Part shown: positions 7,621 through 60,992 of the stretch, in pieces | Numbering within the stretch: the stretch's first letter is position 1 | Layout of the letters: every line of letters starts with the position of its first letter | Assembly: GCA_000004985.1 (NCBI GenBank) | Contig: GG738898.1 | Strand: one strand, 5' to 3' | DNA: 64,000 nt | From: Naegleria gruberi | Taxonomy: Eukaryota | Notes under the pieces: generated by a model | Told to the model about the DNA's origin: nothing | Databases searched by the model: none | What the model saw: only the letters and a program-made list of their open reading frames with translations | Program-made: the position numbers and the translations under genes

Positions 7621-8291
7621 TTGAATTTATTAGAAATTCGGGAGAGTGGTTGTGATGAAGAAACAATATTAAACACAGATTCACAATTTTTACTTGGAAG
7701 AATGTTTGAAAGTGGATATCTAGTAGAAAAATCCATGAAGAAAGCAAACGAATGGTATTCTAAAGCATTACAATCATTTGTTAAACCTGAAAATGAAAAC
7801 CAACCTCACATTCAGTACTATTTAGGAAATATGTGTTACAAAGGAATCATCTTGAAACAATCATATGAAAGGGCATTTAAATGGTTTCAAAAAGCAGCAA
7901 ATGGAAATCATGGAAAATCAATTTACAATTTAGGATTAATGTACTATTTTGGATTGAGAAATCTTATGAAAATGCAGTTGAATATTTTGAAAAAGCTTGT
8001 AATTTTGGAATGTACACAATGTCAAAGTATTACTTGAGTCACATGTATCAGAAAGGTTTAGGTGTGCCAATTTCGAATGAGAAATCGTTACAATTACTTT
8101 ATGAATCAGCGAGTCATGGGTTTGTGCATTCACAACTTCGTTTAGGACCTCGTTATAAGAATGGAGAGGGCATTGAGCAATCTTTCGAATTCTTTCAAAA
8201 ATCTGCCAATCAAGACCATATACAAGCTCAAACCGAGTCGGGAATAATGTTTTATCATGGACAAGGCGTTTTGAGATTATTGAACCACTAA
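7621..8291 (+). CDS. Sel1-like (SLR/TPR-like) repeat protein, interrupted by a 1-nt frameshift near 7951-7957
   Basis: Repeated Sel1 pattern (…A.EWY.KA…YYLG.MY..G.G…). Track ORFs 7621..8037 and 7881..8291 are consecutive repeats in different frames. Restoring one g in ggattg(g)agaaa gives a continuous …YYFGLEKSYENAVEYFEKA…. This is either a sequencing indel or a pseudogene. Confidence 0.5.
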
Positions 8292-8343
8292 CTGAAGTAA
8301 CTAAACCCAATATGAAAAAATTCAATTTATTGTACAATAAACT

Positions 8344-9564
8344 TTACATCATTGATTCATTCAATTGTTTCATCAGTTCATCCAAATCTTGATTTTCAAC
8401 ATTTACCAATTCCTTCTCATCAACCTTCTTATTGTGATGTTCGTATTGATATTCGAGACCGTGTGATAAATCTTCATGACGATGAGCATGTGAGTGAATG
8501 TCAATATCTTCAACTTCATCAGCAACAATTTCAATACCCCATTCATTTTCTGTGTGAACAATCTTCTTTTCATCAGCTTGTTCCTTATCTTCTTCATCGA
8601 GATCCAAGTCGAGTAAACCTTCTTCCTTCAATTTGGCAATTTCAGTTTGTCTCTTGAGACACATTGGATTGGAACATTGAGGATTTGGACGAACCTTCAT
8701 GGTTGGGAAATAATCATTAATGGCACTATAACCCAAGTAATAGCTAATCTTACCAAATCTCAACAAGTATTTCAATACAGATTGAACCAATAAACCAGCA
8801 GTAATACCCATAGTTGTTGGTAAACTGGCAGCACAAACACCTTCACGTTTAACTTGCTTAACACCACTTGCAACAACCAATGGTGGAGCACATTCATAAC
8901 AAGCAGTGAGACCAGGAACCATGAATTGAATGTGACCACTGACAGCATCTTCACTGACTCCACTTTCCATCCATCTAATATTCAATTCATTACAAGCTCT
9001 ATTAATTGCAACTCTAGCTTCAAAATTATCAACACATGACAATACTAAATCAACCTTTCCATTTGTTAATAAATTTCCAGTATTAATTGTATTCATAAAA
9101 GTATCAAAATTGTCCAAAGAAGTAATATTATATGAACATGTTTCAAAAACAACATCAGGATTAATCTTTGAAAGAGTTTCCTTTGAAGCATCCACCTTTG
9201 TCATACCAACTTGATCCGGAGTGAAGAACAAACGATTCATATTAGCAAGAGAGACAATATCAAAATCGAACAAGATTAATTTACCAATACCACATCTTGT
9301 TAACATTTCGCAAACAACAGCACCAACACCTCCCAATCCAACAACAGCCACAGTAAATTCTCTGATTTTTTCATAATTCTTAACAATACCCATCGATGAG
9401 AGAGCCATCAATCTAGAGTATGGATTATCGTCCTTAACTTCGGAAGAAATGACAGAAATTTTCTCTCGGATCACTTTTTGTTGTTGATTTTGAAGTTGAT
9501 TCTTCAGAGAGGCTACTTCCTCTTCCAATTGTTTGATACGTTCTTCCGATTGTTGTTGACTCAT
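8344..9564 (-). CDS. uba5: UFM1-activating E1-like enzyme (UBA5), 406 aa
   Basis: ThiF/MoeB adenylation domain with [21 protein letters not shown] and catalytic Cys context [27 protein letters not shown]. The UBA5-specific C-terminus is present, including [10 protein letters not shown]. Single exon, ATG at 9564, TAA stop. Confidence 0.8.
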
Positions 9565-9748
9565 TTTTTTAATATTATATTATTATTATTAGATTAAATA
9601 ATTTAATGACGTCATGTTTTTTTGAAAATTGAGAGCTCTGTTTTGTAATGTACAAAGAGGTGAATGTGTGTTGTTTTGAATGAAATGATTTCAAATTGGT
9701 AGTAGACCTATTTCACTCACTGGTGGAGGTTGGAGGTTCAGATGAGAT

Positions 9749-13786: not shown

Positions 13787-16700
13787 CTATCTTTTCTGTT
13801 GCAGTTCGATAAATTTTCGAAGACCTTTAAAGTTGGGAAGTGGCTGAAGTTGGTTGAGGTTTAGCGACCTTAGAATGGAATTGACTTCTGAGAAGTGTAC
13901 ATTTGGAGGGTTGAGTTGAGGTTGGTGATCGAATATGAATGGTTCAATAGTGAGATTTTCACCAAGGTTCAAGTGCAATAAGCATTCATCATTAGGTGTT
14001 GATAGAACCTCAATGAAAGGGAAGATTGAAGAGTGCATAATTCTCTGATGAAGAGAAATCGAAAAAAGGAAAATTCCATTCATGGTGAAGTAAACCTCAC
14101 CTTGCTCTGTCAAACCACATCCAATTGTATCTCCACAATGTGCAATTATTTCCAATTCCTTATAAAGTATTTCCTTTTTATCGGCAGACATTATACAGCC
14201 GAATCCTTCCTGTGCCTGAAATGCATATTTTCTATCAACACAATTATTCTCACTAATGTTTGATCTGGCCATCAGTCCAATAGAAACCTTGGAGGATATC
14301 AATCGATGGATTTGAACTTCATAGTAGAATACAGTTTTCATGGAGGGTTTTCTAATGTTGGCAGATGGATTACCAAATCGCCTAGTTTCTGCAATTTCTG
14401 GTTGGAAAAAGAAGAGAGAATCTTTGGTGGTTAGTGACATTTTGGTAGCTCTAGAAGAAACAAAGTGTAGAGTTCGTTCATTATCCAATACCTTGAGTGG
14501 TGATCCTTGAAGATTTACAAGGTGTGAAAAATCTGCTTTGGTTTCAATAGGTACTGGACTATAGTTTCCAAGGTAGTGGTTGATGAGCTCTTTTTCATTT
14601 CCAAGAGTACTGTTTGGATGGTTATCAAAGTGGAAAACCTTGATATCGTTAGGATTCAAATTGTTACAGAGTAAATGATAAATCAATGTTTGTCTATCAA
14701 CGTAGGAGTAATTTTTCAAAAGGCCGAAAGTTAACAGACCACTACCGGTTGGAATGAGATAGTACATGCTATTTGGAAGTCCACATACATTATTATCTCC
14801 AACTATTGCCCCGAATTTCGTATTTCCAATTGTATGGTAGGTTGTAAACTTTTCAAGACTGAAGAAATCATAGAGGAAATTATTCATTACTCCTAGTACT
14901 CTATCTGCAGCACTCTCATCACCAGTGTCAAGAGCCAAGTTCAGTATCTTGGCAAGTTTTTGCCACACTGGTTTGATGATTGCTCTTCTGTGATGGAAAG
15001 GAATCTCATTGAAAACCTCGACTAGTATTGGCTCGATATTGTAATTTGGAGAAAGTAGAGTGGCATAGCCTGGTTCAATGAGTGAAATGTATGTATAGAT
15101 TCCTCTCAATAATTGAGTCTTTTTCTCTGAAAGTGGATCTGAAGATCTGCCAATTTTGCTTTGATTTCTTTCGAGCCACAAACAATAACCAACACGAGTT
15201 GACTTGTCATATTTGCAAAGGAAGAAGATTATTTTCAAGCAGGAAAGGGTGAAGAAAAATTCTGGACTATGGAAAACCTTGGCATGGATAAAATTCAAAA
15301 TACAAGTTGTGGAATATCTTCCCAATTCGTCAACAAGTAAGGAGGAGGTTTCATTTCTCATTTCTCTGATTATTCTCTTAATGTGTCTCTTATCTGTTTG
15401 ATTGTCATAGTATGTGAGTACTTGAGAAATTATACTCAGTGTGCTCTTGAAAATCTCATCATACATCTCATTCAACTCTACACTTGACTCTGTGTGAGCT
15501 CGATCTGAGAATAATTTTCTGGAAATGTAGAACATCAAAACGGGGAGGACTCTATACTCTGACATTAATTCGCAACATTTCTGCCGTAATTTTTCATTGG
15601 AGAGCAAGTCTTTCATGCCAAGAATGGATTTCTTAACAAAAAGACTGCTTGTGTCAAGTCCACTCAAAAATCCTAACAAGGATTCCGGCTTACTGAGAAT
15701 ATTCAACAATTGAGATGAGTCATTCTCAAAGATGAATCTCCATGTTTGTATGACTGGGTGTTCTAATAGTTCAGCTGCACTTTTTCTTTCCTCCCTAGCA
15801 CACACCATCATTTTCACAATTCTTTTTGATCCAATGTCAAATACATGTTCATGAATAAACTCAAAGTAGTGATTCGAACGCATAAATAACCAAAAGTCAA
15901 TATTATACCGTCTTGCTCTTTGATCGATTAATTGTTGGAAATCCTTCACAGTTAAAGTAGCCGAAACTTGCATAAAGATAATTCCTAGACTGTAAACATC
16001 AACTTTGTAATCATATTCAGCTCCAGGTTTAACCTCAGGAGCAACATAGGCCCGAGTACCACAAATAGTTGATGTAGAGTTTTGATGAACAAGTTGCTTA
16101 GCAAGACCAAAATCAATAATTTTCAAAGTAATCTTTCTAATTTCTTCCTCAAAATTATTCTTTAAATTATCAGAATCATATTGCACAATAATGTTTTGCG
16201 GTTTCAAATCTCTGTGAATAACCTTATTTTGATGGAGATAATTCATGACTTCGAGTAATTTGATGAACCATGAGAATCTGACATCCATGGTCAAAGTTTT
16301 GAGACCCTTACTTTCCTTTGTAATTTCATTCAAATCAGAAATAAACTGATCCAATATTTTACCACTACAATATTCCATAAGAATGCAGTAGTATCTCTTG
16401 TTAATGTCCATGAATGAGTCATAATATTTCACAATATTTGGATGATCCAGCATCATCATTAATTTCACTTCCTTTTCCTGATAGTCATTGATTGTGATTC
16501 TTTTTAGAGCAAAAATTCTATTGGTTCCAACTTGGACAACTCTGAATACAGTTCCATAAGATCCTTCTCCTAACTGCTCAAGTAGTTGGAAGGATTTTGT
16601 TTTCTTGNNNNNNNNNNNNNNNNNNNNNNNNNNNNNNNNNNNNNNNNNNNNNNNNNNATCGAAAGAGTTTGCGTTTCCGTTCATTACAAAATTCTTTTGG

Positions 16701-20547: not shown

Positions 20548-22281
20548 TTATTCTTCATCATTTTCAACTTCGACAATATTTTCATCATCCACAAGTACGT
20601 CCATGACATCTTCAACATCTTCGACCTTTTCTTCAGTAAAGATCATTTGCTTTTCTGCCAAGTTTCTATAGATACCTTGTGGAATCTTAATGAGCTCGCT
20701 GTGAGTGCCCTTTTCTTTCATGACACCCTTAACTAAGACACAGATAACATCTGAATTAATGACAGTTGTCAATCTGTGAGCAATACAAATGGTTGTTCTT
20801 CCCTTCATCAATTCATCCAAAGCAGCTTGAACTAATCTTTCAGATTCAGTATCGAGAGCAGATGTGGCTTCATCCAATAAGAGAATCTTTGGATCTTGCA
20901 AGAGAGCTCTTGCAATGGCAATTCTTTGTTTTTGACCACCAGACAAGGAAACACCCTTTTCACCCAAAATAGTGTCATACTTTTCAGGCAAATCCATAAT
21001 AAAGCTGTGAGCATTAGCTCTCTTGGCAGCATTTTCAACTTGTTCCATGGTGACAACTTTACCAGATTCGACACTATCATTAGGACCTAACAAGGCATAG
21101 GCAATGTTATATTTGATTGTTCCAGCAAATAATACAGGTTCTTGTGAGACAATACCCAAACAATTTCTGTGCAACCACATTGGATCGAGCTCAGCAACAT
21201 CAACTCCATCAATCTTAATTGTACCCTTATTTGGAGTATAGAATTTTTCTAAAAGACCTACAATGGTTGACTTGCCTGAACCTGATGGACCAACCAAAGC
21301 AATTTGTTGACCAGATTTGATATCCAAACTGAAATCAGTCATGACATTAGTATTTGGACGAGATGGGTAAGCGAAATCAACTCCAGTAATTTCAATATCA
21401 CCCTTAACTTGTTCAATCTTCTTACCACCCATGAATGGAATGGCTGGTTCTCNNNNNNNNNNNNNNNNNNNNNNNNNNNNNNNNNNNNNNNNNNNNNNNN
21501 NNGACATTGTATGTGAGAACAGAAAGTAAGTGGTGAGGTACTGACAAGAATGAGAGCCATTCTCCAATTGACAGTCATACTCAAAATGAAACCAACAATA
21601 AATTGAATGATTTCTTGCATGAAAATGAAGAATTCGTTTGTGTAAACATCTTGAATCTTTGGAATATCTTCACTGAGAACTACAGTGACACTACCAATCT
21701 TCTTAATATCGAAGAAACTCATTTCTTGTTTAGCCAATGCTGACATGTAAGCTCTTCTCATTGAAGTTCCCAATCTGGCATTTGACAATTGCAAGAAGAA
21801 ATGTTGCATACCGAAAGCAGCCATACCACAGAATGTAAGAATAGTGAGCTTTTTACAGAGATCGTCAACTGCTTCATAAGCAAGAGCTGTTTTCTGTTCT
21901 GTTGTTAAGGTTGATGATGTGGCATTTGCAAAACTGTCAATCAAATCTCCCAAAATATATTGAACAACTAGAATAAGGTTAATACTATTTGAAATTCGAA
22001 TACTATTACTACATACTAATAGGAATCAAACCATAAGCCATTGCACCAATACATCCAATAGCGATCAGTAAACAATTCCATCCAAAAATTCTCAACATGT
22101 GTAAATGAGAGAAGAAACCAATCTTTGGTTCTCTGTCATCTTTGATTTCATCACCAACTGGTTGTTGTTTCTTTGATTTCTTTGAAGTGTCATCTCTTTT
22201 TCTTCTCCTAATGATACGTTGTCTTCTTGTTGGTTGTTGCACTTCTTCCTTATTTTCAGGATTATCACTTTGAGCTGGCAT
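20548..22281 (-). CDS. ABCB-type (MDR/TAP-like) half-transporter, TMD plus NBD; partial because of an internal 50-nt N gap
   Basis: Exon 1 22281..22017 (MPAQSDNPENKEE…AYGLIPI). 49-nt intron GTATGT…TCTAG at 21968..22016. Exon 2 runs from 21967. The TMD is …GDLIDSF… plus transmembrane helices. The N gap 21453..21502 falls between TMD and NBD. The NBD has Walker A GPSGSGKST, signature LSGGQKQRIAIARAL, Walker B ILLLDEATSALD and H-loop IAHRL. Ends in TAA. Confidence 0.75.
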
Positions 22282-28116: not shown

Positions 28117-28846
28117 ATGTCCATCGATTATCAAGCCATTACAAATAAGTGGGAAGAAGCAGTTACACTTGCTCAATCCTATGAAAAGACACCAGAAAAG
28201 TTTACTGCATACAGCACTGGTGAAACTACTATTACTTATTGTGAACATACTGATGGTACTATTATTAAAGGAGAGGTAGGTTTATTTGTTAGCAGTTTCG
28301 AATATATTTAATGATCTTTCCGATAACTTGATGATCATCACAAAATTAATTTACAAATAGTGCATTGTTTTAAATTGCAAAGCTTCTGAATTAATTGCTG
28401 TTCTTGAAGTCACCGATCAAAATGTCAGAAAGCAATTCGATGCCAAAACTAAATCATTGCAAGTATTAGAAACCTTCAACCAAGACAATGGCAAATACAC
28501 TGTCAGACACTATGTCGTCACCTCTCCATCCATGATGGTCTCTGAACGTGATTTCCTCTATGTTGAACATCACAAAACCGAAGGAAATGTCACAACTTAC
28601 CTTACCACTTCCATTGATGGTTTATATCCAGAAGATAAGTGCACTCCAGTTGGTGTTAGAGCAACTAATATCTTTTCATATTTCAAGATGATTGAAGAGG
28701 GAGATGATTTGCACGTTGTCTTTTTGGGTCAAGCTAATCCTAATGGATGGATTCCAACTGCTGTTGCTAATCAAGTTGTTTATGAGAGACCATTGGGTGT
28801 TGTTAATGCTGCTAAACATATTGGAAAGTCCACTAAGGGTGTTTAA
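28117..28846 (+). CDS. START-domain (StAR-related lipid-transfer) protein, 2 exons
   Basis: Exon 1 28117..28275 (MSIDYQAITNKWEEAV…IIKGE). 85-nt intron GTAGGT…AAATAG at 28276..28360. Exon 2 28361..28846. The C-terminal START hallmark is …VRATNIFSYFKM…DDLHVVFLGQANPNGWIPTAVANQVV…. About 150 nt of in-frame open sequence lie upstream of the first ATG. Confidence 0.6.
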
Positions 28847-41911: not shown

Positions 41912-42397
<486 letters not shown>

Positions 42398-44683: not shown

Positions 44684-44712
44684 ACGAGTATTTCATTCTA
44701 ACAATAAATTAT

Positions 44713-46211
44713 TTATTTCCATTCGAAATCTCCTGTGAGTTTGTTGAAGAGGTAATCTTTGCCATCCAAGTGCATGATACCACATTTGAGAGTACACTTC
44801 CATCTATTCTTGTGACGAGTGACCTTTTCATATTGGGCAAGAATAATGTTAGGGGTATCAGGATCCTTATCATCCTCAACGTCATCATCAGATCCTAATT
44901 CTTCTTCTCCAGTGGAAGCGGCACTCTTAGATGGTTCCTCTTCTTCTTCATCTTCTTCAGAGTCATCGTCTTCATCGTCTTCGTCGTCGTCATCATTTGC
45001 ACCATCATATTGTCTAAAGTTAGGATTATTATTATTGCCTAGTCTTGCATCATTAGAATTTGGATCCAACCTTAATCTCTTGTTGGTATCCAAAGGACTA
45101 GTGTAAGCAGGTGATTCTATTGAGGAAGAACTGAATGGTGTACCATATGGATTTGGTGAGTAAGCTGGAGGTAACATTGAACCAATGGAAGGAAGAGAAT
45201 TCTGGCCAAATTGTGGAGATTGAATACTTGGGAGAGTATTTTCACGAGCTTGTGGTAAGCTAAGAGGAGATTGATTTCTTCCCAAAATTGGATTTGAACT
45301 AAAAGAGACAGGAGGCATGTAACTTTCAGGTCTTCCAAATGAAGATATGGACTAGAGGCCATGAAATCAGATTTTGGAGTTGAAAAGGATGGAGGTGGAA
45401 TATTAGGCATACCATAAGGTGATTGAATTGGAGTTACTGGTGGAGGTAATGAAATTGTGCTACTGAAAATAGAGTTTGGTGTAGATGATGATGGAGTTGT
45501 TGCAGCAGGTAGAGAAGGAAGTGAAAGACCACCTCCACTTGCCAAGATGCCACCTCCAGTACTACTCGATAAGATGCCTCCACCACTACTATTACTTGGT
45601 GTATTGTAGAGTGGATTTGTTGGTGTGGAAATGTTATGATGATGTGCAGATGAGAGTGGAGAAATTGAAGGTAAACCAGGACTAATTGAAGGCAGACTTG
45701 GCATTGCCCCACTGAGAATGCCAGAAGAAAAACCTGGAGGTGGACCCAAATTTGGATTTGAAAAGGATGGAGGTGGAATTCTTGGTTGTGGAGGCATAAA
45801 TTCACTTGGAGTTCCAGCAACAATTGGTAATGTTGGAGCATGGTTACCACCGAGGATATCTTGTGATTGATTGATTTGGGTGGATTGAGTTCCGAGCTGA
45901 GAAGATTGTGTTGGAATTGCAGTGTTACTTGAAGAAGCAGCTGCATTTTGATTTCTTGATCTGGCTGCATTTCTCGAAGCAGCAGCACCTCTATTTGAAC
46001 CTCTCGAACTAGATTGTCCAGGGGTAATATTCCAAGCAGGTACAGCTCCACTTTCTCCAATTTTGTCTCCCCAAAGTTTCTTCAATTCATTTATAACATC
46101 GGAGTTGTAACCTTCCTCAACAAATATTTCTTGAATACCGGCAGCAACTTCATCAATCAGAGAACGATAAAAGTCAGCCACTAATTTTTCGTGGTTGGAA
46201 ACAGAAGACAT
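44713..46211 (-). CDS. TFIIA large subunit (TOA1/GTF2A1-like), frameshifted in the low-complexity middle
   Basis: The N-terminal four-helix region is MSSVSNHEKLVADFYRSLIDEVAAGIQEIFVEEGYNSDVINELKKLWGDKI. A long Ser/Pro/Asn-rich linker and an acidic stretch follow. The C-terminal beta-barrel region is …ILAQYEKVTRHKNRWKCTLKCGIMHLDGKDYLFNKLTGDFEW. The frame changes near 45330-45375, between track ORFs 45117..46211 and 44713..45318. No compatible intron fits; an indel is likely. TAA stop. Confidence 0.6.
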
Positions 46212-46640: not shown

Positions 46641-48012
46641 TTACTTTTTCTTCTTCTTTTTGGTTGATTTGGAAGAAGATGAGGAGGTGGTCTTTGCCAT
46701 TGCATTATATTGAACTCTTGCATATTGCATTAGATCGTGTTGGAATCGTGAGAATTCCTTTGGTCCAATATCTAATTCTTCAATCAGAGATTCTTTGGAA
46801 AAGTCCTTTTCTCTTTGAAGAAGTTTCTTGATTGCAATATTGACCAATTCTTTTTGTTTGTCTCCAAATACAGACCAGTGAACCTCTGTTTGGCAGTTAT
46901 TGAACTATGTAAATAGTTATAATTGATTACTAACCTTCAATATCTTTTGGTTTGATTTTGTACAATCTTCTATTGGTGACACCTGGCCAATTTTCCTTAC
47001 TTTCAATAGAAGGATGAATTGAAGACGGTTTGCAACAAATGTATAAAACAGCTCCTTCAGTGATAAAGTGATTATACTCATATCTTACTTCCAGATTGTT
47101 CATCTTTCTATATTCCTCATTCTTAATAAAGTCGGCTACTTGTCTTGATTTACAAATTTCTGTCATCTTTTCAAATCCATTGAATTCATATTGTTGATTG
47201 GATTCAGTATTCATGACTGGTTCAATAAATCCTCCATTTAAATGTTGCATGAATAGTGGTTTGAGATCAATATCAAAATCATACAGGACCAGATGAGGTT
47301 CTTTCTTTCCGCACAATTCACACGATAGAGATTGAATTTCAGGTCTAGTAATAAATTCTTTCAAAATGGCAGGTGGATTCTTTACATCAATTGACTTTCT
47401 GTCACTACTCGATCCATACAATGCCTCTAAGGTCAATGCATAAAAATCACCATATTGAGTATCAGTTAAAGTAGGACTTCCCTTTGTTTTGGCAGAGACA
47501 AATAAATTTCCATTCTTATCATAATATTTAAAGAATAATACATTTGTTCCATTCCACCTATTTTACAATTAATTGAATAATTTAAATTCTTCTTTGAAAA
47601 TTAATCTGTATACCTACTTGTTCGAAAGTACGAAATTTGTCACTTTATCATCAGTTTTAAAACTCTCCTTGTACTTTAATCCAGACAATTGCAATTCTTC
47701 TCCTCCTTCATTATCAGCACTATTTTCTTCCTTCTCTCCATCATGAACATCCTCATCATCATCTCTCTTCTTCTTCTTCTTATCGGAATATGGGTACAAC
47801 AACTTGGGAACACCATAAATCTTTTGTAATTTATCCAATTTTTGATTATTTACATGAGTGATCACAAGAGATCCTCCGAATGGACCATCCTTCTTACAAA
47901 TAAATCCAGAAATTTGTTGTTTCGGATTCAGTGGATCTGTGATATCAAAGGCTTTGATCTGTTTGTTGGACGTATCGAAAAAATCACAAGCTTCCTTCTT
48001 GTAGTTTGTCAT
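46641..48012 (-). CDS. Rnl2-family ATP-dependent RNA ligase, paralog B (3 exons)
   Basis: Exon 1 48012..47618 (MTNYKKEACDFF…VLSN-K). 60-nt intron GTAGGT…AAATAG at 47558..47617. Exon 2 47557..46935, beginning WNGTNVLFFKYYDKNGNLFVSAKTKGSPTLTDTQYGDF (motif I KWNGTN spans the junction). 49-nt intron GTTAGT…AACAG at 46886..46934. Exon 3 46885..46641 (EVHWSVFGDK…LIEELDIGPKEFSRFQHDLMQYAR… then a Ser-rich/poly-Lys tail). It is colinear with paralog A (…CGKKEPHLVLYDFDIDLKPLF…, …YEYNHFITEGAVLYI…, …LYKIKPKD…). TAA stop. Confidence 0.65.
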
Positions 48013-48223: not shown

Positions 48224-48327
48224 ATGGCTACGGCCATATCACGATGAATGCACCTCATCCCGTCCGATTTGAGAAGTTAAGCATCGTCGAGCCACATCAG
48301 TACTGAGGTGGAGACAACTTGGGAACC
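48224..48327 (+). rRNA. 5S: 5S rRNA, 3' end cut by a 50-nt assembly gap
   Basis: …GGCTACGGCCATATCACGATGAATGCACCTCATCCCGTCCGATTTGAGAAGTTAAGCATCGTCGAGCCACATCAGTACTGAGGTGGAGACAACTTGGGAACC. It matches the universal 5S boxes (ACGGCCATA…GAA…CCCGTCCGAT…AAGTTAAGC…AGTACT…GGGAAC). It runs into N gap 48328..48377. Confidence 0.8.
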
Positions 48328-48427
48328 NNNNNNNNNNNNNNNNNNNNNNNNNNNNNNNNNNNNNNNNNNNNNNNNNNGCAGCAGATTGGCTGTTTATTGT
48401 TAGTAATTTATGATATCATTAGAATCG

Positions 48428-48512
48428 TTAGATAACGTTTGAGAAGTTAAGCATCGTCGAACCACATCAGTACTGAGGTTGGATACAACTTGGGAACCTG
48501 TGGTGCTGTAGT
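48428..48512 (+). rRNA. 5'-truncated 5S rRNA copy (probable pseudogene) with intact 3' end and T-run
   Basis: TTAGATAACGTTTGAGAAGTTAAGCATCGTCGAACCACATCAGTACTGAGGTTGGATACAACTTGGGAACCTGTGGTGCTGTAGTA, then TTTTT. The 3' two-thirds are about 90% identical to copy 1. The 5' about 40 nt are replaced by unrelated sequence. A further degenerate 5S 5' fragment (GTGGCCATACTATTGAATGC) follows at about 48548. Confidence 0.5.
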
Positions 48513-48755: not shown

Positions 48756-51531
48756 ATGTTAAATTCTTTCCACAAGAGAGAAAGAGAATATTCTGATGAA
48801 GAGGATACAACAGTAGAAGGAAACAAGGATGACCAAGCTGATGAACCTACCAGTGGCCCAACTCACTTTTTTATGCCAGAAACCTATGAACAAGCTATTC
48901 CGAAAAAGAAAAAGCTAATGGACTATGTTAATATTGATATTGAAAACAAAGTACAATTGCCTGAAGCAGAGAGTAGGAATGCAATTGAACACTACCTCAC
49001 AACAAATGTTGGAGCATCTTACTGTAAAAAGATTGGTGAGGGAGGAGGTGGAGATGTTTATCTTGTAAAGAAGGGAAACACCATGAAAGCAGTGAAACAC
49101 ATTCGCAGTTTTAGTAATGAATATAGTAGATTTGATGAGGTATTTCAAATTGCAAAGTTAAAGCACGACCACATTATTGAAATTGATGATTATTATTTGA
49201 TTAATAATGAATTTTGCTTCGAGATGGACTATTATGAAAAGGGCTCATTGGAAACATATAAGAATAAGTTGACAGTGGGTCAACTATTTCAAATAGCATG
49301 TCAAATTTCAAGTGCTATTAAATATATTTCAGAACAGGAACTATGTCATCGAGACGTCAAAATTGCTAACATACTCGTGAAGGAAATTACTGATTCTAAT
49401 ATTTATGTAGTATTGACAGACTTTGGAGTATCTTTTAAGAAAAACTCATACAAGCCCTACCAATTCAAAACTGGAACTGAGCAATATTACGATCCAGAAA
49501 TTGAAAAATACTTTAACACCGAAAAAAGAGGTTTACTAGAGTTTCCTTTCAAAACTGAAACTGATTTGTACGCCCTAGGTGTAACACTTGAACGATTATC
49601 CAACAAAACCACTATCAATAGTACTCCTCTTTTGAAAGAAATTATTACTAGTCTTACAAATTCAACTCTCCCAACAAGAATGAAAATGATGAATGTATTG
49701 GCTGATATTTCACTTGCAACTACCATAGCATTTAAAGATCCAAAAAACAGAACGCAGTGGGATAAGTACTTGCATGCTTGTGTTATGAACCCAAATTGTT
49801 TCATATTTTGCCCTTACAACAAAAATAAGCGATTTATTTACAAAGTATTGGATATCAATCACCATATTTTCGAAATGGTTCCTGACGATTTGTTGGATGA
49901 AAATATAGTTATAAAGTCAATAAGAGATGTCAGATCAGTATTAATATTTCAAAACAGAAATAAGGCTTGCATAGATAAGTTCAAGTCTTTAATTTCACAC
50001 CTCATAGACGTTCATGTACTTAGAAATGTACAATATAATACAGGAGAGAGAATCCAGACAGAGATGGAAAAGTTAAGTGAGAGTCAGTTGGAAATATTGG
50101 TATATTATAACTCTCGTTTTTTTAAATATTTTCCGATCAAGTACACATTGAATCGAAATATTGTATTTTCATTCATCAAAAAAGTGGAAGAATGTTTCCA
50201 GCATTGTAGTTACCGAGACGATGAAGAAATAATTCAATATGTACTAGAGAAAAATCCAAAGTTTATCACTTTCATCAGTTTTGAGTTAAGATTTAAATAT
50301 GAACAACAATATGCAAAGGAAATTTTGGAAGTGGATCCGTCTTTTTATTCATCCTTAAGTGAAATTAGTTTAAAAGATAGATTATTTGCCAAACTTGCAA
50401 TGAAAGGCTGCAAGTCACAACGTGATTTTGATTCAAATTTTGATTGTCTACCTGAAGATCTTAAAACTCAAGATTTTTTTATAGAGATAATTACAGAAAA
50501 TTCCAAGACTTTCCATAATTTGAAGAACCATTTGGATCATGACTCATTGGTACAGGTAATAACACCTAGTTTATATTTTACTTTGGAAGATAGAAGAAAA
50601 ATGGATCGAGATATTCTCAGAAAAATATTATCAGAGAAGTTTTCAAGTGAAGAAATAGAAAAAATATTGAATTGTTTGAGTGAAAATTATTATCACTCAC
50701 ATTTCAAACAGGAATTGTTTGAAAATATTTCAAAAGAAAGCGTGTTAGATTTAATATTGTTGGGTGTACCACTGCCTGAGTGTGTCTACTATCAACAGAC
50801 GCAGATTTCATATTGGAAATTATTACTCGTACCAAAAAAGGGTATTTTACATCAAGTTTTTTGAAAGATTCTACAATTAATATTTCCACATTGGTTTGGA
50901 TTTTATTAAGAAATTGTGCCTTGATAAACAGGGTTTCTCTCACTTGATTCATGCCATTGAAGTTAAAGAACAAGGAAATGAATTGATGCAAAAATGTTCA
51001 GATGACATTGAATTGGTAAATCAAATAATTGAAATATCTCCTGATCTATATGAAAATCTATCATGCAATAATTTAAAAAATAATGAAATAATAATTGAAA
51101 CTTATCTGAATCATACCTACTATCCTCGATTATCCAAAGATTTAAAACTTGATGATGAATTCCAAGCAAAGCATTTAAAAAAATTAATTGATTCAGGATA
51201 CATTACAAAACCAAATAGAGAATTAGTAAGGAGTGGAATATTTAAATCAAAGGATATAGGTTTATTGCTTTATTTGGAATCCAAGGATTTAGACGACAAA
51301 GAATTTATGCTTCCAATATTAGAGAAATTTCCTCGTGCTTATTTGAGCTGTAGATCCTTATTAATAGACAAGGAAATAATCAAGATGGTCATTCGTAAAA
51401 ATGATGAAATTTATGAAGATCTCGATACTACTTTTCAAAAAGATGAGGAAATATTATCTGTCCTTAATGAACCAAAAAGTTCCATCGATTCAATAATGGC
51501 AGAAGTTAATGATAATACTTCTGAGAAATAA
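48756..51531 (+). CDS. Protein kinase domain fused to a long array of DUF4116-like alpha-helical repeats; interrupted around 50862-50895
   Basis: The N-terminal kinase is …IGEGGGGDVYLVKK…AVKHI…CHRDVKIANILV…LTDFGVS…. The remainder (track ORF 48756..50864 plus 50896..51531, both repeat-rich) has recurring about 35-aa units such as DEEIIQYVLEKNPKFITFIS, QDFFIEIITENSKTF and KEFMLPILEKFPRAYLS. The first ORF ends at a TGA. The second continues in the +1 frame after an in-frame TAA. No GT-AG intron reconciles the frames. A single gene with an indel is likely; two genes are possible. Confidence 0.5.
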
Positions 51532-52455: not shown

Positions 52456-55400
52456 NNNNNNNNNNNNNNNNNNNNNNNNNNNNNNNNNNNNNNNNNNNNN
52501 NNNNNNNNNNNNNNNNNNNNNNNNNNNNNNNNNNNNNNNNNNNNNNNNNNNNNNNNNNNNNNNNNNNNNNNNNNNNNNNNNNNNNNNNNNNNNNNNNNNN
52601 NNNNNNNNNNNNNNNNNNNNNNNNNNNNNNNNNNNNNNNNNNNNNNNNNNNNNNNNNNNNNNNNNNNNNNNNNNNNNNNNNNNNNNNNNNNNNNNNNNNN
52701 NNNNNNNNNNNNNNNNNNNNNNNNNNNNNNNNNNNNNNNNNNNNNNNNNNNNNNNNNNNNNNNNNNNNNNNNNNNNNNNNNNNNNNNNNNNNNNNNNNNN
52801 NNNNNNNNNNNNNNNNNNNNNNNNNNNNNNNNNNNNNNNNNNNNNNNNNNNNNNNNNNNNNNNNNNNNNNNNNNNNNNNNNNNNNNNNNNNNNNNNNNNN
52901 NNNNNNNNNNNNNNNNNNNNNNNNNNNNNNNNNNNNNNNNNNNNNNNNNNNNNNNNNNNNNNNNNNNNNNNNNNNNNNNNNNNNNNNNNNNNNNNNNNNN
53001 NNNNNNNNNNNNNNNNNNNNNNNNNNNNNNNNNNNNNNNNNNNNNNNNNNNNNNNNNNNNNNNNNNNNNNNNNNNNNNNNNNNNNNNNNNNNNNNNNNNN
53101 NNNNNNNNNNNNNNNNNNNNNNNNNNNNNNNNNNNNNNNNNNNNNNNNNNNNNNNNNNNNNNNNNNNNNNNNNNNNNNNNNNNNNNNNNNNNNNNNNNNN
53201 NNNNNNNNNNNNNNNNNNNNNNNNNNNNNNNNNNNNNNNNNNNNNNNNNNNNNNNNNNNNNNNNNNNNNNNNNNNNNNNNNNNNNNNNNNNNNNNNNNNN
53301 NNNNNNNNNNNNNNNNNNNNNNNNNNNNNNNNNNNNNNNNNNNNNNNNNNNNNNNNNNNNNNNNNNNNNNNNNNNNNNNNNNNNNNNNNNNNNNNNNNNN
53401 NNNNNNNNNNNNNNNNNNNNNNNNNNNNNNNNNNNNNNNNNNNNNNNNNNNNNNNNNNNNNNNNNNNNNNNNNNNNNNNNNNNNNNNNNNNNNNNNNNNN
53501 NNNNNNNNNNNNNNNNNNNNNNNNNNNNNNNNNNNNNNNNNNNNNNNNNNNNNNNNNNNNNNNNNNNNNNNNNNNNNNNNNNNNNNNNNNNNNNNNNNNN
53601 NNNNNNNNNNNNNNNNNNNNNNNNNNNNNNNNNNNNNNNNNNNNNNNNNNNNNNNNNNNNNNNNNNNNNNNNNNNNNNNNNNNNNNNNNNNNNNNNNNNN
53701 NNNNNNNNNNNNNNNNNNNNNNNNNNNNNNNNNNNNNNNNNNNNNNNNNNNNNNNNNNNNNNNNNNNNNNNNNNNNNNNNNNNNNNNNNNNNNNNNNNNN
53801 NNNNNNNNNNNNNNNNNNNNNNNNNNNNNNNNNNNNNNNNNNNNNNNNNNNNNNNNNNNNNNNNNNNNNNNNNNNNNNNNNNNNNNNNNNNNNNNNNNNN
53901 NNNNNNNNNNNNNNNNNNNNNNNNNNNNNNNNNNNNNNNNNNNNNNNNNNNNNNNNNNNNNNNNNNNNNNNNNNNNNNNNNNNNNNNNNNNNNNNNNNNN
54001 NNNNNNNNNNNNNNNNNNNNNNNNNNNNNNNNNNNNNNNNNNNNNNNNNNNNNNNNNNNNNNNNNNNNNNNNNNNNNNNNNNNNNNNNNNNNNNNNNNNN
54101 NNNNNNNNNNNNNNNNNNNNNNNNNNNNNNNNNNNNNNNNNNNNNNNNNNNNNNNNNNNNNNNNNNNNNNNNNNNNNNNNNNNNNNNNNNNNNNNNNNNN
54201 NNNNNNNNNNNNNNNNNNNNNNNNNNNNNNNNNNNNNNNNNNNNNNNNNNNNNNNNNNNNNNNNNNNNNNNNNNNNNNNNNNNNNNNNNNNNNNNNNNNN
54301 NNNNNNNNNNNNNNNNNNNNNNNNNNNNNNNNNNNNNNNNNNNNNNNNNNNNNNNNNNNNNNNNNNNNNNNNNNNNNNNNNNNNNNNNNNNNNNNNNNNN
54401 NNNNNNNNNNNNNNNNNNNNNNNNNNNNNNNNNNNNNNNNNNNNNNNNNNNNNNNNNNNNNNNNNNNNNNNNNNNNNNNNNNNNNNNNNNNNNNNNNNNN
54501 NNNNNNNNNNNNNNNNNNNNNNNNNNNNNNNNNNNNNNNNNNNNNNNNNNNNNNNNNNNNNNNNNNNNNNNNNNNNNNNNNNNNNNNNNNNNNNNNNNNN
54601 NNNNNNNNNNNNNNNNNNNNNNNNNNNNNNNNNNNNNNNNNNNNNNNNNNNNNNNNNNNNNNNNNNNNNNNNNNNNNNNNNNNNNNNNNNNNNNNNNNNN
54701 NNNNNNNNNNNNNNNNNNNNNNNNNNNNNNNNNNNNNNNNNNNNNNNNNNNNNNNNNNNNNNNNNNNNNNNNNNNNNNNNNNNNNNNNNNNNNNNNNNNN
54801 NNNNNNNNNNNNNNNNNNNNNNNNNNNNNNNNNNNNNNNNNNNNNNNNNNNNNNNNNNNNNNNNNNNNNNNNNNNNNNNNNNNNNNNNNNNNNNNNNNNN
54901 NNNNNNNNNNNNNNNNNNNNNNNNNNNNNNNNNNNNNNNNNNNNNNNNNNNNNNNNNNNNNNNNNNNNNNNNNNNNNNNNNNNNNNNNNNNNNNNNNNNN
55001 NNNNNNNNNNNNNNNNNNNNNNNNNNNNNNNNNNNNNNNNNNNNNNNNNNNNNNNNNNNNNNNNNNNNNNNNNNNNNNNNNNNNNNNNNNNNNNNNNNNN
55101 NNNNNNNNNNNNNNNNNNNNNNNNNNNNNNNNNNNNNNNNNNNNNNNNNNNNNNNNNNNNNNNNNNNNNNNNNNNNNNNNNNNNNNNNNNNNNNNNNNNN
55201 NNNNNNNNNNNNNNNNNNNNNNNNNNNNNNNNNNNNNNNNNNNNNNNNNNNNNNNNNNNNNNNNNNNNNNNNNNNNNNNNNNNNNNNNNNNNNNNNNNNN
55301 NNNNNNNNNNNNNNNNNNNNNNNNNNNNNNNNNNNNNNNNNNNNNNNNNNNNNNNNNNNNNNNNNNNNNNNNNNNNNNNNNNNNNNNNNNNNNNNNNNNN

Positions 55401-56688
55401 NNNNNNNNNNNNNNNNNNNNNNNNNNNNNNNNNNNNNNNNNNNNNNNNNNNNNNNNNNNNNNNNNNNNNNNNNNNNNNNNNNNNNNNNNNNNNNNNNNNN
55501 NNNNNNNNNNNNNNNNNNNNNNNNNNNNNNNNNNNNNNNNNNNNNNNNNNNNNNNNNNNNNNNNNNNNNNNNNNNNNNNNNNNNNNNNNNNNNNNNNNNN
55601 NNNNNNNNNNNNNNNNNNNNNNNNNNNNNNNNNNNNNNNNNNNNNNNNNNNNNNNNNNNNNNNNNNNNNNNNNNNNNNNNNNNNNNNNNNNNNNNNNNNN
55701 NNNNNNNNNNNNNNNNNNNNNNNNNNNNNNNNNNNNNNNNNNNNNNNNNNNNNNNNNNNNNNNNNNNNNNNNNNNNNNNNNNNNNNNNNNNNNNNNNNNN
55801 NNNNNNNNNNNNNNNNNNNNNNNNNNNNNNNNNNNNNNNNNNNNNNNNNNNNNNNNNNNNNNNNNNNNNNNNNNNNNNNNNNNNNNNNNNNNNNNNNNNN
55901 NNNNNNNNNNNNNNNNNNNNNNNNNNNNNNNNNNNNNNNNNNNNNNNNNNNNNNNNNNNNNNNNNNNNNNNNNNNNNNNNNNNNNNNNNNNNNNNNNNNN
56001 NNNNNNNNNNNNNNNNNNNNNNNNNNNNNNNNNNNNNNNNNNNNNNNNNNNNNNNNNNNNNNNNNNNNNNNNNNNNNNNNNNNNNNNNNNNNNNNNNNNN
56101 NNNNNNNNNNNNNNNNNNNNNNNNNNNNNNNNNNNNNNNNNNNNNNNNNNNNNNNNNNNNNNNNNNNNNNNNNNNNNNNNNNNNNNNNNNNNNNNNNNNN
56201 NNNNNNNNNNNNNNNNNNNNNNNNNNNNNNNNNNNNNNNNNNNNNNNNNNNNNNNNNNNNNNNNNNNNNNNNNNNNNNNNNNNNNNNNNNNNNNNNNNNN
56301 NNNNNNNNNNNNNNNNNNNNNNNNNNNNNNNNNNNNNNNNNNNNNNNNNNNNNNNNNNNNNNNNNNNNNNNNNNNNNNNNNNNNNNNNNNNNNNNNNNNN
56401 NNNNNNNNNNNNNNNNNNNNNNNNNNNNNNNNNNNNNNNNNNNNNNNNNNNNNNNNNNNNNNNNNNNNNNNNNNNNNNNNNNNNNNNNNNNNNNNNNNNN
56501 NNNNNNNNNNNNNNNNNNNNNNNNNNNNNNNNNNNNNNNNNNNNNNNNNNNNNNNNNNNNNNNNNNNNNNNNNNNNNNNNNNNNNNNNNNNNNNNNNNNN
56601 NNNNNNNNNNNNNNNNNNNNNNNNNNNNNNNNNNNNNNNNNNNNNNNNNNNNNNNNNNNNNNNNNNNNNNNNNNNNNNNNNNNNNNNN
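52456..56688. other. Assembly gap (4233 N)
   Basis: A continuous run of n. The three giant track ORFs (52359..56747, 52375..56700, 52451..56734) are artefacts of translating N. Additional 50-nt gaps lie at 16608..16657, 21453..21502 and 48328..48377. There is one ambiguous base at 60277. Confidence 0.99.
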
Positions 56689-56999
56689 TGCAGACGATGA
56701 TAGTTACGAGAATTGTGAATGACAGCAGATTCAAATCGAGCCATCAAAACTTGAATTCTATTCTACAACCTCATTGGAAGAGTAATGACGAAGTGTTTTG
56801 GCTGAGACAAAACTTAAGACATCTCCATCGGATAGTCTATCGCCAACTTCATAGTTACGTCTAATCTCCTTGATAGTAGTTAGAACCCATGCCTTTTTAC
56901 CTCATGAAGTTTTAATCTGCTAAATTAACTTTTCAAATTCTTAGCTCAATGTTCATCACATGTCTTCCATCAACACACAATTATTTTACAATAAAAAAA

Positions 57000-58116
57000 A
57001 TGTCTGAAGAAGTAGCCCTCGTTATTGACAATGGTTCTGGAATGTGTAAAGCTGGTTTTTCTGGTGATGATGCTCCTCGTGTAGTGTTTCCTTCTATCAT
57101 CGGTCAACCAAAACACTTGTCAGAAATGTCCGAATTCTACGTTGGAGATGAAGCTCAATCAAAACGAGGTCTATTAAATTTGAGAAATCCAATCAATCAA
57201 GGAATTGTCAATAATTGGGATGATATGGAAAGGATTTGGTTTCATACTTTTTACAATGAATTGAGAGTTGCTCCTGAGGAATATCCAATATTGATGAGTG
57301 AAGTTTCGTTGAATCTCAAGACAAATAGAGAAATGATGTCACAAATCATGTTTGAAAAATTTTGTGTGCCAGCTCTGTATGTTGCTAATAGAGCTGTCTT
57401 GGCATTGTACGCTTCTGGAAAAAGTACTGGAATGATTGTGAATTCTGGAGATTCTGTCACTCATGCCGTTCCTATTTACGAAGGTCATGCTCTGCCATGC
57501 CATTTTGAAAATGGATTTAGGTGGTCGAGATTTAACAAATTATTTAATGAAAATGTTGACAGAAAGAGGATACACTTTCACTAACACTGCTGAAAGAGAA
57601 ATAGTTAGAGATCGTAAAGAAAAGCTCTGTTACCTTGCTCTAGATTTTCAAGAGGAAATGAATTCGGTTGTAAGAGAAGAACCAACCATTGATAGAAAAT
57701 TGTATGATATACCAGAGGGTAATGTTGTCACTCTTGGGAATGAAAGATTCAGATGTCCAGAGATTTTATTCCATCCAAATATGATTGATGTGGAATCTAA
57801 AGTTGGAATTCATGAAATGACTTTCAATTCAATTGGACAATGTGATCCTGATATAAGAAAGGAATTGTTTGGAAATATTTTCTTATCTGGTGGCAATACC
57901 ATGTTTGAGGGAATTACTGACAGAATGAGTAAGGAATTAACTGCTCTCGCTCCAGAATCCTTCAATATTAAGGTGACTGCTCCACCTGAGAGAAAATACT
58001 CAACTTGGATTGGTGGTTCAATGCTTGCACTCAGTTCCACTTTTAAAGATAATTGGATGACAAGGGAGGATTATGAAGAGGTTGGACCAGCCATCATACA
58101 CAGAAAGTGTTTTTAA
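57000..58116 (+). CDS. Divergent actin paralog (about 55-60% identity to conventional actin), interrupted by a 2-nt deletion near 57493-57500
   Basis: [35 protein letters not shown]…[48 protein letters not shown]…PIYEGHALP then frame change then [17 protein letters not shown]…[15 protein letters not shown]…[11 protein letters not shown]…[16 protein letters not shown]…[10 protein letters not shown]. It is colinear with actin throughout. Restoring ca in ctgcca(ca)tgcc gives …[11 protein letters not shown]…. TAA stop. Confidence 0.75.
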
Positions 58117-58386
58117 AATTTAAACACCAAGTTCCCAAAATGTTTTTCATTGGAGTTCATTTTATCTTTTGCCAGCTATTTATAAACATGATGACGAAAT
58201 TTTCGTCATCATTACAAAAAGAATGATGTCAGCGACTCCGAAATTAAATTGCTGATGAAGAAGACACTGAGGGTTTTCATTCAAATAATGCCCATTCATG
58301 AATGATATTCTTGAAAAAAACAAGACAATTTAATTTGCAAACAAGCAATTCAACTAACAACTAACAACAACAATAACTCAACAAAA

Positions 58387-58935
58387 ATGGACTTTTTCAA
58401 AAAGATTGGTCAATTCTTCTCTGGATGGCTCAAAGGTTTATTCGAAAATAAGGAAGCCAAGATTCTATTCCTTGGTTTGGATGCAGCTGGTAAAACTTCA
58501 GCTCTATATAAGATTCAATTAGATGAAAATGTCAGCACCATTCCAACTATTGGTTTCAATGCTGAAGTTATACAATATAAGAAGGTTACTTTCAGAGTGT
58601 TTGATATTGGTGGTCAGGATAAGATTAGAAAGTTATGGAGACACTATTATCAATCGACGAATGCTATCATTTTCATTGTCGATTCTAATGATACTGAGAG
58701 ATTTAAAGAAGCTGCTGAAACCTTACGGGAAGTTATGCAAGATGATCTGTTGAAAGATGCCAAGTTATTGGTGTGGGCTAATAAGCAAGATTTACCAAGA
58801 GCTGCCAATGTTAAAGACATGGTCAATACTTTGAAATTACACGAGATCAAGCAAGAATGGTACATCCAACCATGTAGTGCCCTGTCTGGAAATGGATTAT
58901 TCGAAGGTTTAGATTGGTTATCCAGTAAATTGTAA
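58387..58935 (+). CDS. ARF-family small GTPase (ARF/ARL), 182 aa
   Basis: It has ARF signatures. The N-terminal amphipathic helix is [15 protein letters not shown]1 is GLDAAGKTS. Then …TIPTIGFN… and G3 [17 protein letters not shown]4 is ANKQDL and G5 is CSA. Single exon, TAA stop. Confidence 0.8.
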
Positions 58936-58975
58936 ATATCACAATGAATAAAATCATGTCCAATGGAGACACTAT

Positions 58976-59560
58976 TCAAATATCTTCTTTTTCGTCAAGT
59001 AATTCGTGAATTCGAGATCCATCTGTTGACTCACCAACACTCTTATAAACTCCTTCTTTCTTGAGATGATAATACACAAGGCAATTACAACTCCAATAAT
59101 CCACCAGTGAGAGATCCAACGGTTGCTGCATCCAAATTCCAATAATTGAATTTACTGCCAGTTGTTGAAACTTTTGGAACAATGCAATCAGAAAGTGTTG
59201 GCGTAATACGCACGGCACCAGTTCCTTTCGAATAGATAGCATCAACCAGAATGTATATTCATTGGGGCTTCTGATGGATTCACACTGGTTTTTGTTGAGG
59301 TTCCATCCATAAAGAAGTCAAATCCAGAGAATGTTGGTATTGTATTCATTCCAATAAACATCTGGATCAAATGCTGAACGAATGAACAGAATAATCTTTG
59401 CTCTTGAAGGTGAATGACGCATGAAGAACACATCTATTGGAATTGTTTTGTCTAAATTCCACAATAGAATTGTCAATGCTATTTTCAAGAATGGGATTTG
59501 GTTGCCTCTCATAAAGATTGAAAAGATAGTTTCGTTTTGGGGAAGTGGACAAATAATTTA
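58976..59560 (-). pseudogene. Fragmented ORF for a probable single-pass membrane protein; four consecutive frame segments (3 frame changes) within about 600 bp
   Basis: Minus-strand segments are MRGNQIPFLKIALTILLWNLDKTIPIDVFFMRHSPSRAKIILFIRSAFDPDVYWNEYNTNIL, then …GMNTIPTFSGFDFFMDGTSTKTSVNPSEAPMNIHSG, then …VDAIYSKGTGAVRITPTLSDCIVPKVSTTGSKFNYWNLDAATVGSLTGGLLEL, then …IIGVVIALCIIISRKKEFIRVLVSQQMDLEFTNYLTKKKIFE (TM helix plus short tail). No GT-AG introns reconcile the frames. Confidence 0.3.
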
Positions 59561-60105
59561 GCCATCTTCATCCAACACGAATAATCTGAATGTAGGATTT
59601 AAATTCATTAATGGAGGAGGGTTTCCAGTCAGGTTAATCTTCAACTCATTTGCTCAATGAAAGGAAGATGATATTATGCCAAAATATTGTACAGTTTGGC
59701 TCTGCTCCAGGATTCTCATCTTCATACACAGCTTTGTAGTTCGACAATATTAATTATGCACTTGTTTCATCAGCTTAAATACTATCCAGTCAAAATTTGA
59801 TGTAGATAAATGAAGGAGTTTTTTAAAGTGGAAAGTTGACAATGTTTGAAAATGAAACTCTTCCACACATTACTCAATATTTTAAATACAACGAGTGTAT
59901 TCTTTCATCAGATACATGTAAGAAAGAAATTGTAAACCCAATTGAACTGCAAGCTCTTCAATTATTGTAAAGTTTACAATAAAAAAAACTCAGCTCGTCC
60001 TTAAAAGTCCGCACGAGCCAAAAAACATTCGCACAAACATAAATTCCCATAAAAGAAACCACATGCCACGTATTCGAAAAATCAAAAACAAAACACAAAA
60101 AAAAA

Positions 60106-60992
60106 ATGTCCACTACTACTATTACTACTACTTCTAAAACTACATCCCGTGTCTGGCTTATTGTTGGTACTTCCACAGGTTTCGGAAGAGAATTTGTCAA
60201 GTCTGTCCTTCATAGAGGTGAAAAGGTTATAGCCACAGCTCGTTCCTTGGACAAGATTCAAGATTTGAAGGAATTGNGTGCTCATACTATGCAACTTGAT
60301 GTTACCTCCGATCAAGGTACATTAAATTTGTTTGCTGAGCAGGCAATTGGAGTGTATGGTCATGTTGATATTCTCATCAATAATGCTGCCTATGTTTTGA
60401 ATGGGACTATTGAGGAGACATGAGGAGATCAACACTTGTTTAATACCAATGTTTTTGGATTGTTGAATACGACACGTGCTATTCTTCCACATTTTCGTGA
60501 AAGAAAGAGTGGAATTATTGTAAATATTCATCCATTGGTGGAATAGCTAGTGTTAAAGTTGGTGGATTGTATTGTGCTACTAAATTTGCTGTGGAAGCAA
60601 TTTCTGAAGCACTCAAAGATGAAGTTGCTCATTTGGGAATTAAGGTTGTCGTTGTTGAACCAGGTTACTTTAGAACTGATTTGCTTTCGTCTAGTAATAT
60701 GAAGGATGCTAAAAAAACTATTTCAGATTATGAACCAATTTACAAGGAAGTTGATTTCCATGCTGTTAATCACAAGCAAAGAGGTGATCCTGTAAAGTTA
60801 TCCGAAAGACTCGTTGATGTTTTGACCCAGAGTGGAGTTGCTGCTGGAAGAGAAATTCCATTCAGAATTCCATTTGGTGTTGATGCTTATCCATTCATTG
60901 AAGGTAAATGTCAAACTGTTTTGAAGGAAATGAAGGAATGGGAAGATGTCATTAAGAGTACTGATCATGATGATGTCACTCCTCAACAATAA
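60106..60992 (+). CDS. SDR-family oxidoreductase, second copy, with an in-frame TGA at 60421-60423 and a 1-nt frameshift near 60526-60530
   Basis: The Rossmann motif is LIVGTSTGFGREF. Then …NNAAYVLNGTIEET-TGA-GDQHLFNTNVFGLLNTTRAILPHFRERKSGIIVNI. After restoring one t (att(t)catcc) it continues SSIGGIASVKVGGLYCATKFAVEAISEALKDEVAHLGIKVVVVEPGYFRTDL…. That gives the active-site Tyr-x3-Lys (YCATK). One ambiguous base (n) lies at 60277. TAA stop at 60990-60992. Confidence 0.6.

Follow-up and report, generated by a model that had tools for sequence, protein, structure and literature searches.

Do the small frame breaks scattered among otherwise conserved genes of Naegleria gruberi come from errors in the genome sequence, or have these genes really been lost? 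We addressed this question in a 64,000-nucleotide (nt) stretch of contig GG738898.1 (assembly GCA_000004985.1), hereafter the window, for which a preliminary description made from the sequence alone had ascribed the breaks to assembly or base-calling error and, in the four cases where it reconstructed the exact change, to one-base under-calls in homopolymers of 2–3 nt. We found about ten short deletions in six genes, which encode a Sel1-repeat protein, an isoleucyl-tRNA synthetase (IleRS)-like protein, the large subunit of TFIIA (TFIIA-L), a protein kinase with DUF4116 repeats, an actin paralog and a short-chain dehydrogenase (SDR). Six of these deletions are net losses of one base; the others remove 2, 5 and 7 nt and, in one further case, a single nucleotide. 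We propose, with a probability of roughly 50%, that they have a mixed origin, in which one gene (Sel1) would have decayed and the other lesions would be local consensus errors, none of them a homopolymer under-call.

The window is a piece of a 310,422-bp scaffold of the Joint Genome Institute (JGI) Sanger draft of N. gruberi NEG-M, as the NEG-M proteins EFC39583–EFC39653, all encoded on one scaffold, are identical residue for residue to open reading frames (ORFs) of the window. According to Table 1 of PMC9928731, the sequencing platform of NEG-M (ATCC 30224) was Sanger; the assembly comprises 1977 contigs and 784 scaffolds, with a contig N50 of 159,679 bp (PMC6125883). Literature searches on the project PRJEB11402, and on frameshifts or sequencing errors in this assembly, returned nothing specific.

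Cluster look-ups supplied a comparison set of five contigs, all from the ENA metagenome assembly ERZ929261 (run ERR1078381). Their identity to the window is 95–99%, and together they span 12.1 kb of it, including 9.8 kb of coding sequence. Because they belong to a relative and not to NEG-M, these contigs show the intact gene and the exact missing bases, and do not show that the bases are truly absent from NEG-M. The ORFs of the relative are intact at every lesion that could be checked (actin, SDR and Sel1), and the missing bases are known at four of them (7 nt in Sel1, 2 nt in actin, 5 nt and 1 nt in SDR). In seven other genes, which make up the greater part of these 9.8 kb, the window and the relative differ only by insertions or deletions (indels) of a multiple of three nucleotides. 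Three further searches added little: a scan of JGI metagenome contigs with a chimeric query of the broken genes found no close relative, a homology search with their 1681-residue chimera returned only distant Sel1 matches, and exact look-ups of the repaired actin and the truncated ORFs in a protein collection gave no match, which is evidence for neither side.

The Sel1-repeat gene (7621–8288, plus strand), both ORFs of which match the Pfam Sel1 profile, departs from its ortholog, which lies on contig L008 as a continuous ORF of at least 463 codons. The frame break suspected near 7955 is real and lies at 7950/7951. It is not the loss of one g from ttgg, as had been supposed, since the relative reads TATTTTGGATTTGGGATTGAG and the window TATTTTGGATTGAG; what is missing is the 7-nt GGATTTG, between direct GGATT repeats. 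Three further segments are missing as compared to L008: 318 nt at 7676/7677, 12 nt at 8181/8182 (one repeat thereby loses NEKA) and 382 nt at 8270/8271, the last one causing a frameshift and showing a GTT microhomology. The four deletions interrupt Sel1 repeats and are distributed along the entire length of the gene. Its pN/pS (the ratio of nonsynonymous to synonymous differences) is about 0.6 (7 nonsynonymous and 3 synonymous, both small counts) as compared to 0.06–0.25 in the neighbouring genes, and the accession order indicates that it has no JGI model between D2VU76 and D2VU77. As base-calling cannot produce losses of 318, 12, 7 and 382 nt, the Sel1 gene is, judging from its deletions, genuinely decayed in NEG-M. 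Contig L008 has a large deletion of its own, for it lacks 243 nt of the PNPOx-ferredoxin-reductase gene EFC39638 (5587–5829; 81 codons, in frame, in the FAD-binding part), which is either a real deletion or an artefact of the metagenome assembly.

The actin paralog NAEGRDRAFT_60876 (57000–58116, plus strand) matches the actin profile in two frames, at positions 3–167 and 164–410. The 2-nt break noticed near 57497 corresponds to the loss of CA from CACA at 57495/57496, where the relative (contig L001) reads CCACATGCC and the window CCATGCC; the protein of the relative (P0241, 372 residues) is continuous. In the JGI model (362 residues) this lesion is hidden by a 28-nt GT-AG pseudo-intron (57456–57483), at the expense of ten conserved residues. 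The actin paralog has a pN/pS of about 0.2, and the part upstream of the lesion differs from the relative at one position in about 580 nt. The identity between L001 and the window over 56916–58453 is a mosaic, with one substitution in 56916–57533 and 23 in 57534–58453, the switch starting 38 nt past the actin lesion. The switch may mark a recombination point or the border between two haplotypes, or L001 may be a chimeric metagenome contig.

In the SDR gene (60106–60992, plus strand), a lone ambiguous base (N60277, a G in contig L005) and three deletions occur within 252 nt. In the window, GAGGAGACATGAGGAGATCAA stands in place of the GAGGAGAGTACTCATGAGGAGACTCAA of the relative, so that first 5 nt (GTACT, at 60418–60420) and then 1 nt (a C flanked by A and T, at 60428/60429) are missing. 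These two losses together explain both the in-frame TGA at 60421–60423, which is an out-of-frame reading of CATGAG, and a two-residue gap in the alignment with PDB 3m1a. The TGA, previously listed as a separate defect, is thus a product of the two deletions and not of a substitution. The third deletion, the net loss of one base at 60528/60529, lies where it had been described; NI and SSIGG, which it separates, are contiguous in the alignment with 3m1a. The ambiguous base lies 141 nt from the 5-nt loss, and the three deletions then follow within 111 nt. The start of L005 (61–326) is only 83% identical to the window at 58129–58324, a stretch over which L001 is about 97% identical, and L005 carries 34 nt from the 5' end of the Arf gene in inverted orientation. 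From these two observations, L005 is chimeric, or else two or more lineages of Naegleria are present in the metagenome.

The IleRS-like gene (36909–39750, minus strand, with one 5' intron) has two net −1 lesions, at 38126/38125 and 37680/37679, in agreement with the two breaks described previously. Three successive ORFs match, in that order, positions 37–310 and 323–407 of the tRNA-synt_1 profile and the Anticodon_1 profile, and restoring one base at each of the two sites opens the frame for 942 codons. The alignment with PDB homologs is gapless between ESG and MFPFAD, and has a one-residue gap between FITS and QRKF. The best database match is about 33–34% identical, the canonical N. gruberi IleRS included, and no close ortholog was found among 5.8 billion proteins. 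This gene has HKNKH in place of KMSKS; it is a divergent paralog, possibly a non-catalytic one.

The TFIIA-L gene (44713–46211, minus strand) matches positions 2–106 and 317–415 of its Pfam profile in different frames. The break reported near 45350 was verified by alignment with two continuous orthologs, that of Willaertia magna (KAL9656442, P0265) and the ENA protein P0424, which places it between ASSP and ISSFGRPES; the net loss of one base falls within 45335–45351, most simply at 45349/45348. This gene is expected to be essential, and we saw no second copy of it. The possibility that the frame change in the TFIIA linker is conserved, raised by the JGI metagenome contig L006, was rejected: P0424 is continuous, and the position in L006 differs from that in the window. 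L006 has its own frame change at 280–340 as compared to P0424 (at least 90% identical), for which a 56-nt GTAGTG...CAG intron is an alternative. A gene for an archaeal-type cofactor-independent phosphoglycerate mutase (43573–44683, plus strand; Pfam PhosphMutase PF10143 and Metalloenzyme) stands tail to tail with TFIIA-L, an arrangement also found in L006.

The kinase-DUF4116 gene (48756–51531, plus strand), with Pfam matches to Pkinase and DUF4116, is broken near 50870 as had been noticed, though not by a single lesion. Because the upstream frame meets a stop at 50862, before the downstream frame opens at 50881, no single indel can join the two. A three-frame view calls for two −1 shifts, at 50780–50796 and 50881–50890, through a middle-frame segment, DADFILEIITRTKKGY, in which DFILEIITRTKKGY bears a weak resemblance to the repeat DFFIEIITENSKTF of the same protein.

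Two other suspected sites turned out differently. The possible break near 24240 in the EF1A-family GTPase paralog EFC39645 (23212–24724, minus strand) is a 43-nt GT-AG intron (24225–24267, minus strand), as in the JGI model. Splicing it out yields DAPAAPFVKSM and the exact EFC39645 protein, and in contig L009 of the relative this intron is also 43 nt long and carries two substitutions, the coding sequence being free of indels. This paralog reads DAPAAPF where translational GTPases have DxPGH-DF, so that the G3 glycine and the catalytic histidine are absent, and L009 is identical there; EFC39645 may be a pseudo-GTPase. The second site, described as a membrane-protein ORF with three breaks (58976–59560), is part of an unannotated stretch (58976–59813, minus strand) of short ORF fragments in several frames. 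It has no Pfam match and, by accession order, no JGI model, and 758 nt of it (59056–59813) are replaced in L005 by 82 unrelated nucleotides (893–974). This stretch is not established as a gene, and is probably a decay remnant like the Sel1 gene.

At the six broken genes, by contrast with the GTPase site, no spliceosomal intron accounts for the change of frame. All GT...AG pairs that would restore the frame at the lesions were enumerated; each of them removes conserved residues, and the exercise was uninformative. Since the two frames at each break hold residues that are contiguous in the homologs, sequence is missing and not extra. Frame arithmetic shows that all shifts are net losses of bases, and the corrected ORFs run over 372–942 codons with no further stop. 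All six genes carry disabling lesions and are homologs of functional genes, as pseudogenes are.

Could the cell bypass the breaks during expression, by programmed −1 frameshifting, insertional RNA editing or very short unconventional introns? The net −1 geometry equals that of −1 frameshifting. Within the zone where a shift is permitted, the second IleRS site has an X_XXY_YYZ heptamer (AAATTTG) and the first kinase site a run of A6. However, a slippery heptamer is absent from five of the seven −1 sites, and the heptamers found are, by our estimate, about as numerous as expected by chance and lie downstream of the shift as placed by homology. Sequence is missing, so introns cannot apply, and the missing bases are heterogeneous, so they fit poorly with one editing system. 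The ORFs of the relatives are continuous (L001 for actin, L005 for SDR, L008 for Sel1, P0265 and P0424 for TFIIA-L), which in practice excludes programmed frameshifting. We therefore regard a bypass of any of these kinds as scarcely credible.

We then considered the proposal that homopolymer under-calls, made in base-calling or assembly, account for every lesion. It can claim that the draft contains gaps and an ambiguous base, that the shifts are all net losses and that the orthologs are intact. Several lines of evidence contradict it. First, the platform was Sanger. Sanger chemistry has no homopolymer-length error mode like that of flow- or pore-based platforms. Second, none of the four lesions with known bases (GGATTTG, CA, GTACT, and C flanked by A and T) is a homopolymer loss, and all 208 coding homopolymers of at least 5 nt, 50 of which reach at least 6 nt, are in frame. 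Third, the context claimed is that expected by chance: as 51% of coding bases are next to a base of the same kind, a homopolymer of 2–3 nt carries no signal. Fourth, the Sel1 losses of 318, 382, 12 and 7 nt are impossible from base-calling. The identity of the missing base, which had been given for 38125, 37680 and 60528, is unreadable, as GGN and TCN codons are repaired by any base and xCA by several plausible ones, so that the claimed homopolymer context cannot be read from the sequence at these sites either. We hold the under-call explanation to be very unlikely.

Four of the intervals between neighbouring lesions are shorter than 500 nt (P = 0.004 as compared to random placement in coding sequence), the kinase pair being about 100 nt apart and the IleRS-like pair 446 nt. 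All these clusters lie inside single genes, which gene decay also predicts; by our estimate, they are tighter than uniform decay along genes of 0.9–2.8 kb would give.

We favour a mixed origin for the deletions, which are features of the deposited sequence, and neither introns nor recoding signals. In the Sel1 gene, the four deletions (318, 7, 12 and 382 nt) would represent true decay in NEG-M, whereas the lesions in the SDR, kinase, IleRS-like, TFIIA-L and actin genes would most likely be local errors of the draft consensus, of the kind that arises from sparse or low-quality read support or from the merging of two haplotypes. The source of the window, the positions of the breaks, the bases missing at four lesions and the integrity of the orthologs are direct observations; we infer the assignment of each lesion to error or true mutation from the following considerations. 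An error is suggested at TFIIA-L because this presumably essential gene is broken here and continuous in its orthologs, and at SDR and the kinase because of their tight clusters, with 252 nt holding the ambiguous base and three deletions in the former, and about 100 nt holding two deletions in the latter. The stop-free corrected ORFs, the constraint on the actin paralog and its near identity to the relative upstream of the lesion, the multiple-of-three indels in the seven other genes and the canonical introns at all other junctions also speak for error. The earlier choice of error rather than mass pseudogenisation would hold, in a local sense, for five genes, and fails for Sel1.

Several observations weigh against this mixed origin. 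The indels of noncoding sequence that are not multiples of three are balanced (the window lacks 28 and has 24 additional ones), and so give no sign of a general bias towards under-calling. A draft with gaps and an ambiguous call near the lesions describes SDR only, and the IleRS-like and Sel1 lesions are 8–10 kb from any gap. Three of the four known lesions are multi-nucleotide (7, 5 and 2 nt), and two of them lie in short repeats (GGATT...GGATT and CACA). Multi-nucleotide losses in short repeats are typical of real slippage and unusual for base-calling. Lastly, five of the six broken genes (Sel1, kinase-DUF4116, actin, SDR and IleRS-like) belong to expanded or paralogous families, while the housekeeping genes for UBA5, ubiquitin-S27a and Arf are intact in the window; broken paralogs together with intact housekeeping genes are the pattern predicted by gene decay.

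The same observations support the alternative that all lesions are real in NEG-M, either as fixed young pseudogenes or as null alleles of one haplotype picked up by a collapsed consensus. The known lesions of 7, 5, 2 and 1 nt, two of them in short direct or dinucleotide repeats, the demonstrable decay of Sel1 and the paralogous nature of most of the broken genes all fit with it, as do the IleRS-like copy with its HKNKH and lack of a close ortholog, the large in-frame deletion that the relative too shows in its PNPOx-ferredoxin-reductase gene, and the heterozygosity of NEG-M, for which PMC9928731 cites Fritz-Laylin 2010. Against this alternative, very recent null mutations in six of some 35 genes would greatly exceed any plausible density, and one of these genes is TFIIA-L, expected to be essential and seen in a single copy. 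Furthermore, the SDR lesions adjoin an ambiguous base call, the clusters within genes (100 nt and 111 nt) are tighter than independent mutations give, the corrected ORFs have no stops, and the actin paralog is under purifying selection. We consider it unlikely, though a serious candidate, that all lesions are real. Its more specific form, in which NEG-M, a clonal laboratory strain propagated for decades and reported to be heterozygous, carries one-haplotype null alleles in about one sixth of the genes here, TFIIA-L included, so that the consensus displays allelic decay, appears quite improbable.

The gaps and the annotation of the window complete the picture. It contains three 50-N gaps (16608–16657, 21453–21502 and 48328–48377) and a sized scaffold gap of 4233 N (52456–56688, no strand), as counted from its N, in addition to the N at 60277 inside the SDR gene; with five contigs within 64 kb, its fragmentation is above the genome average. 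The gap at 21453–21502 splits an ABC transporter gene, in which positions 156–274 of the ABC_membrane profile are absent, so that about 360 nt or more must be missing there and the 50 N are a placeholder, not a size. At 48328, a 5S rRNA gene (Rfam, 60.7 bits; 48226–48343) runs into the gap, and a partial second copy, 95% identical, lies past it at about 48438–48510; the gap is probably located within a small 5S repeat. An overlap of contig ends across it, first taken as a sign of poor ends, was rejected in favour of the two 5S rRNA copies. Two tRNA genes were also found with Rfam (4920–4991, minus strand; 30033–30105, plus strand), and a START-domain gene (28117–28846, plus strand) seemingly lacks a JGI model, judging from the EFC and UniProt accession order.

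The ORFs for UBA5 (EFC39639), an F-box protein (EFC39646), a C2 protein (EFC39583), a cofilin-like protein (EFC39585), ubiquitin-S27a (EFC39650) and Arf (EFC39591) are identical to the JGI proteins, and our hand-spliced models reproduce those of EFC39638, EFC39653, EFC39584, EFC39649 and EFC39645 exactly. The introns are canonical and short (43–85 nt), and their donors include GTAAGT, GTGAGT and GTAGGT. These introns account for every ORF junction outside the lesion sites, namely at about 6368–6416, 28276–28360, 31087–31148, 34512–34563, 35019–35080, 47563–47616 and 62851–62904, and at the 5' end of the IleRS-like gene.

In practical terms, these breaks affect the N. gruberi reference gene models on this scaffold. 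Those of TFIIA-L, SDR, the kinase and the IleRS-like gene should be treated as suspect, Sel1 has none, and presence/absence or pseudogene counts for Naegleria in comparative studies would be misled. The earlier advice to use indel-aware gene prediction is sound, as illustrated by the actin model, which hides its lesion behind a pseudo-intron. The frame breaks are an ordinary quality issue of a known reference genome, and change nothing in the biology unless NEG-M reads confirm the lesions.

How do these breaks compare with known systems? Like programmed frameshifting (+1 in Euplotes, −1 at X_XXY_YYZ in viruses), they place adjacent ORFs of one gene in different frames, but here the shift is not conserved, most breaks have no stop-linked or slippery site, and the sizes are 1, 2, 5 and 7 nt. 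With the homopolymer errors of 454, Ion Torrent and nanopore data they share only the outcome, i.e. single-base shifts in otherwise good ORFs, whereas the platform here is Sanger, long homopolymers are intact and the known missing bases lie outside homopolymers. The Sel1 gene resembles the young pseudogenes of protist gene families, with its four deletions, raised pN/pS, absence of a model and intact ortholog in a 97%-identical relative. The other broken genes differ from such pseudogenes in having no stops or large deletions; actin shows normal constraint, and TFIIA-L is among them. Finally, as compared to the consensus errors of low-coverage Sanger drafts, several lesions here are unusual in being multi-nucleotide or in short direct repeats, some of them far from gaps. 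The likeness to such drafts lies in the gapped scaffold with its ambiguous base, in the small losses clustered below read length, and in the annotators' model stepping round at least one lesion by means of a pseudo-intron.

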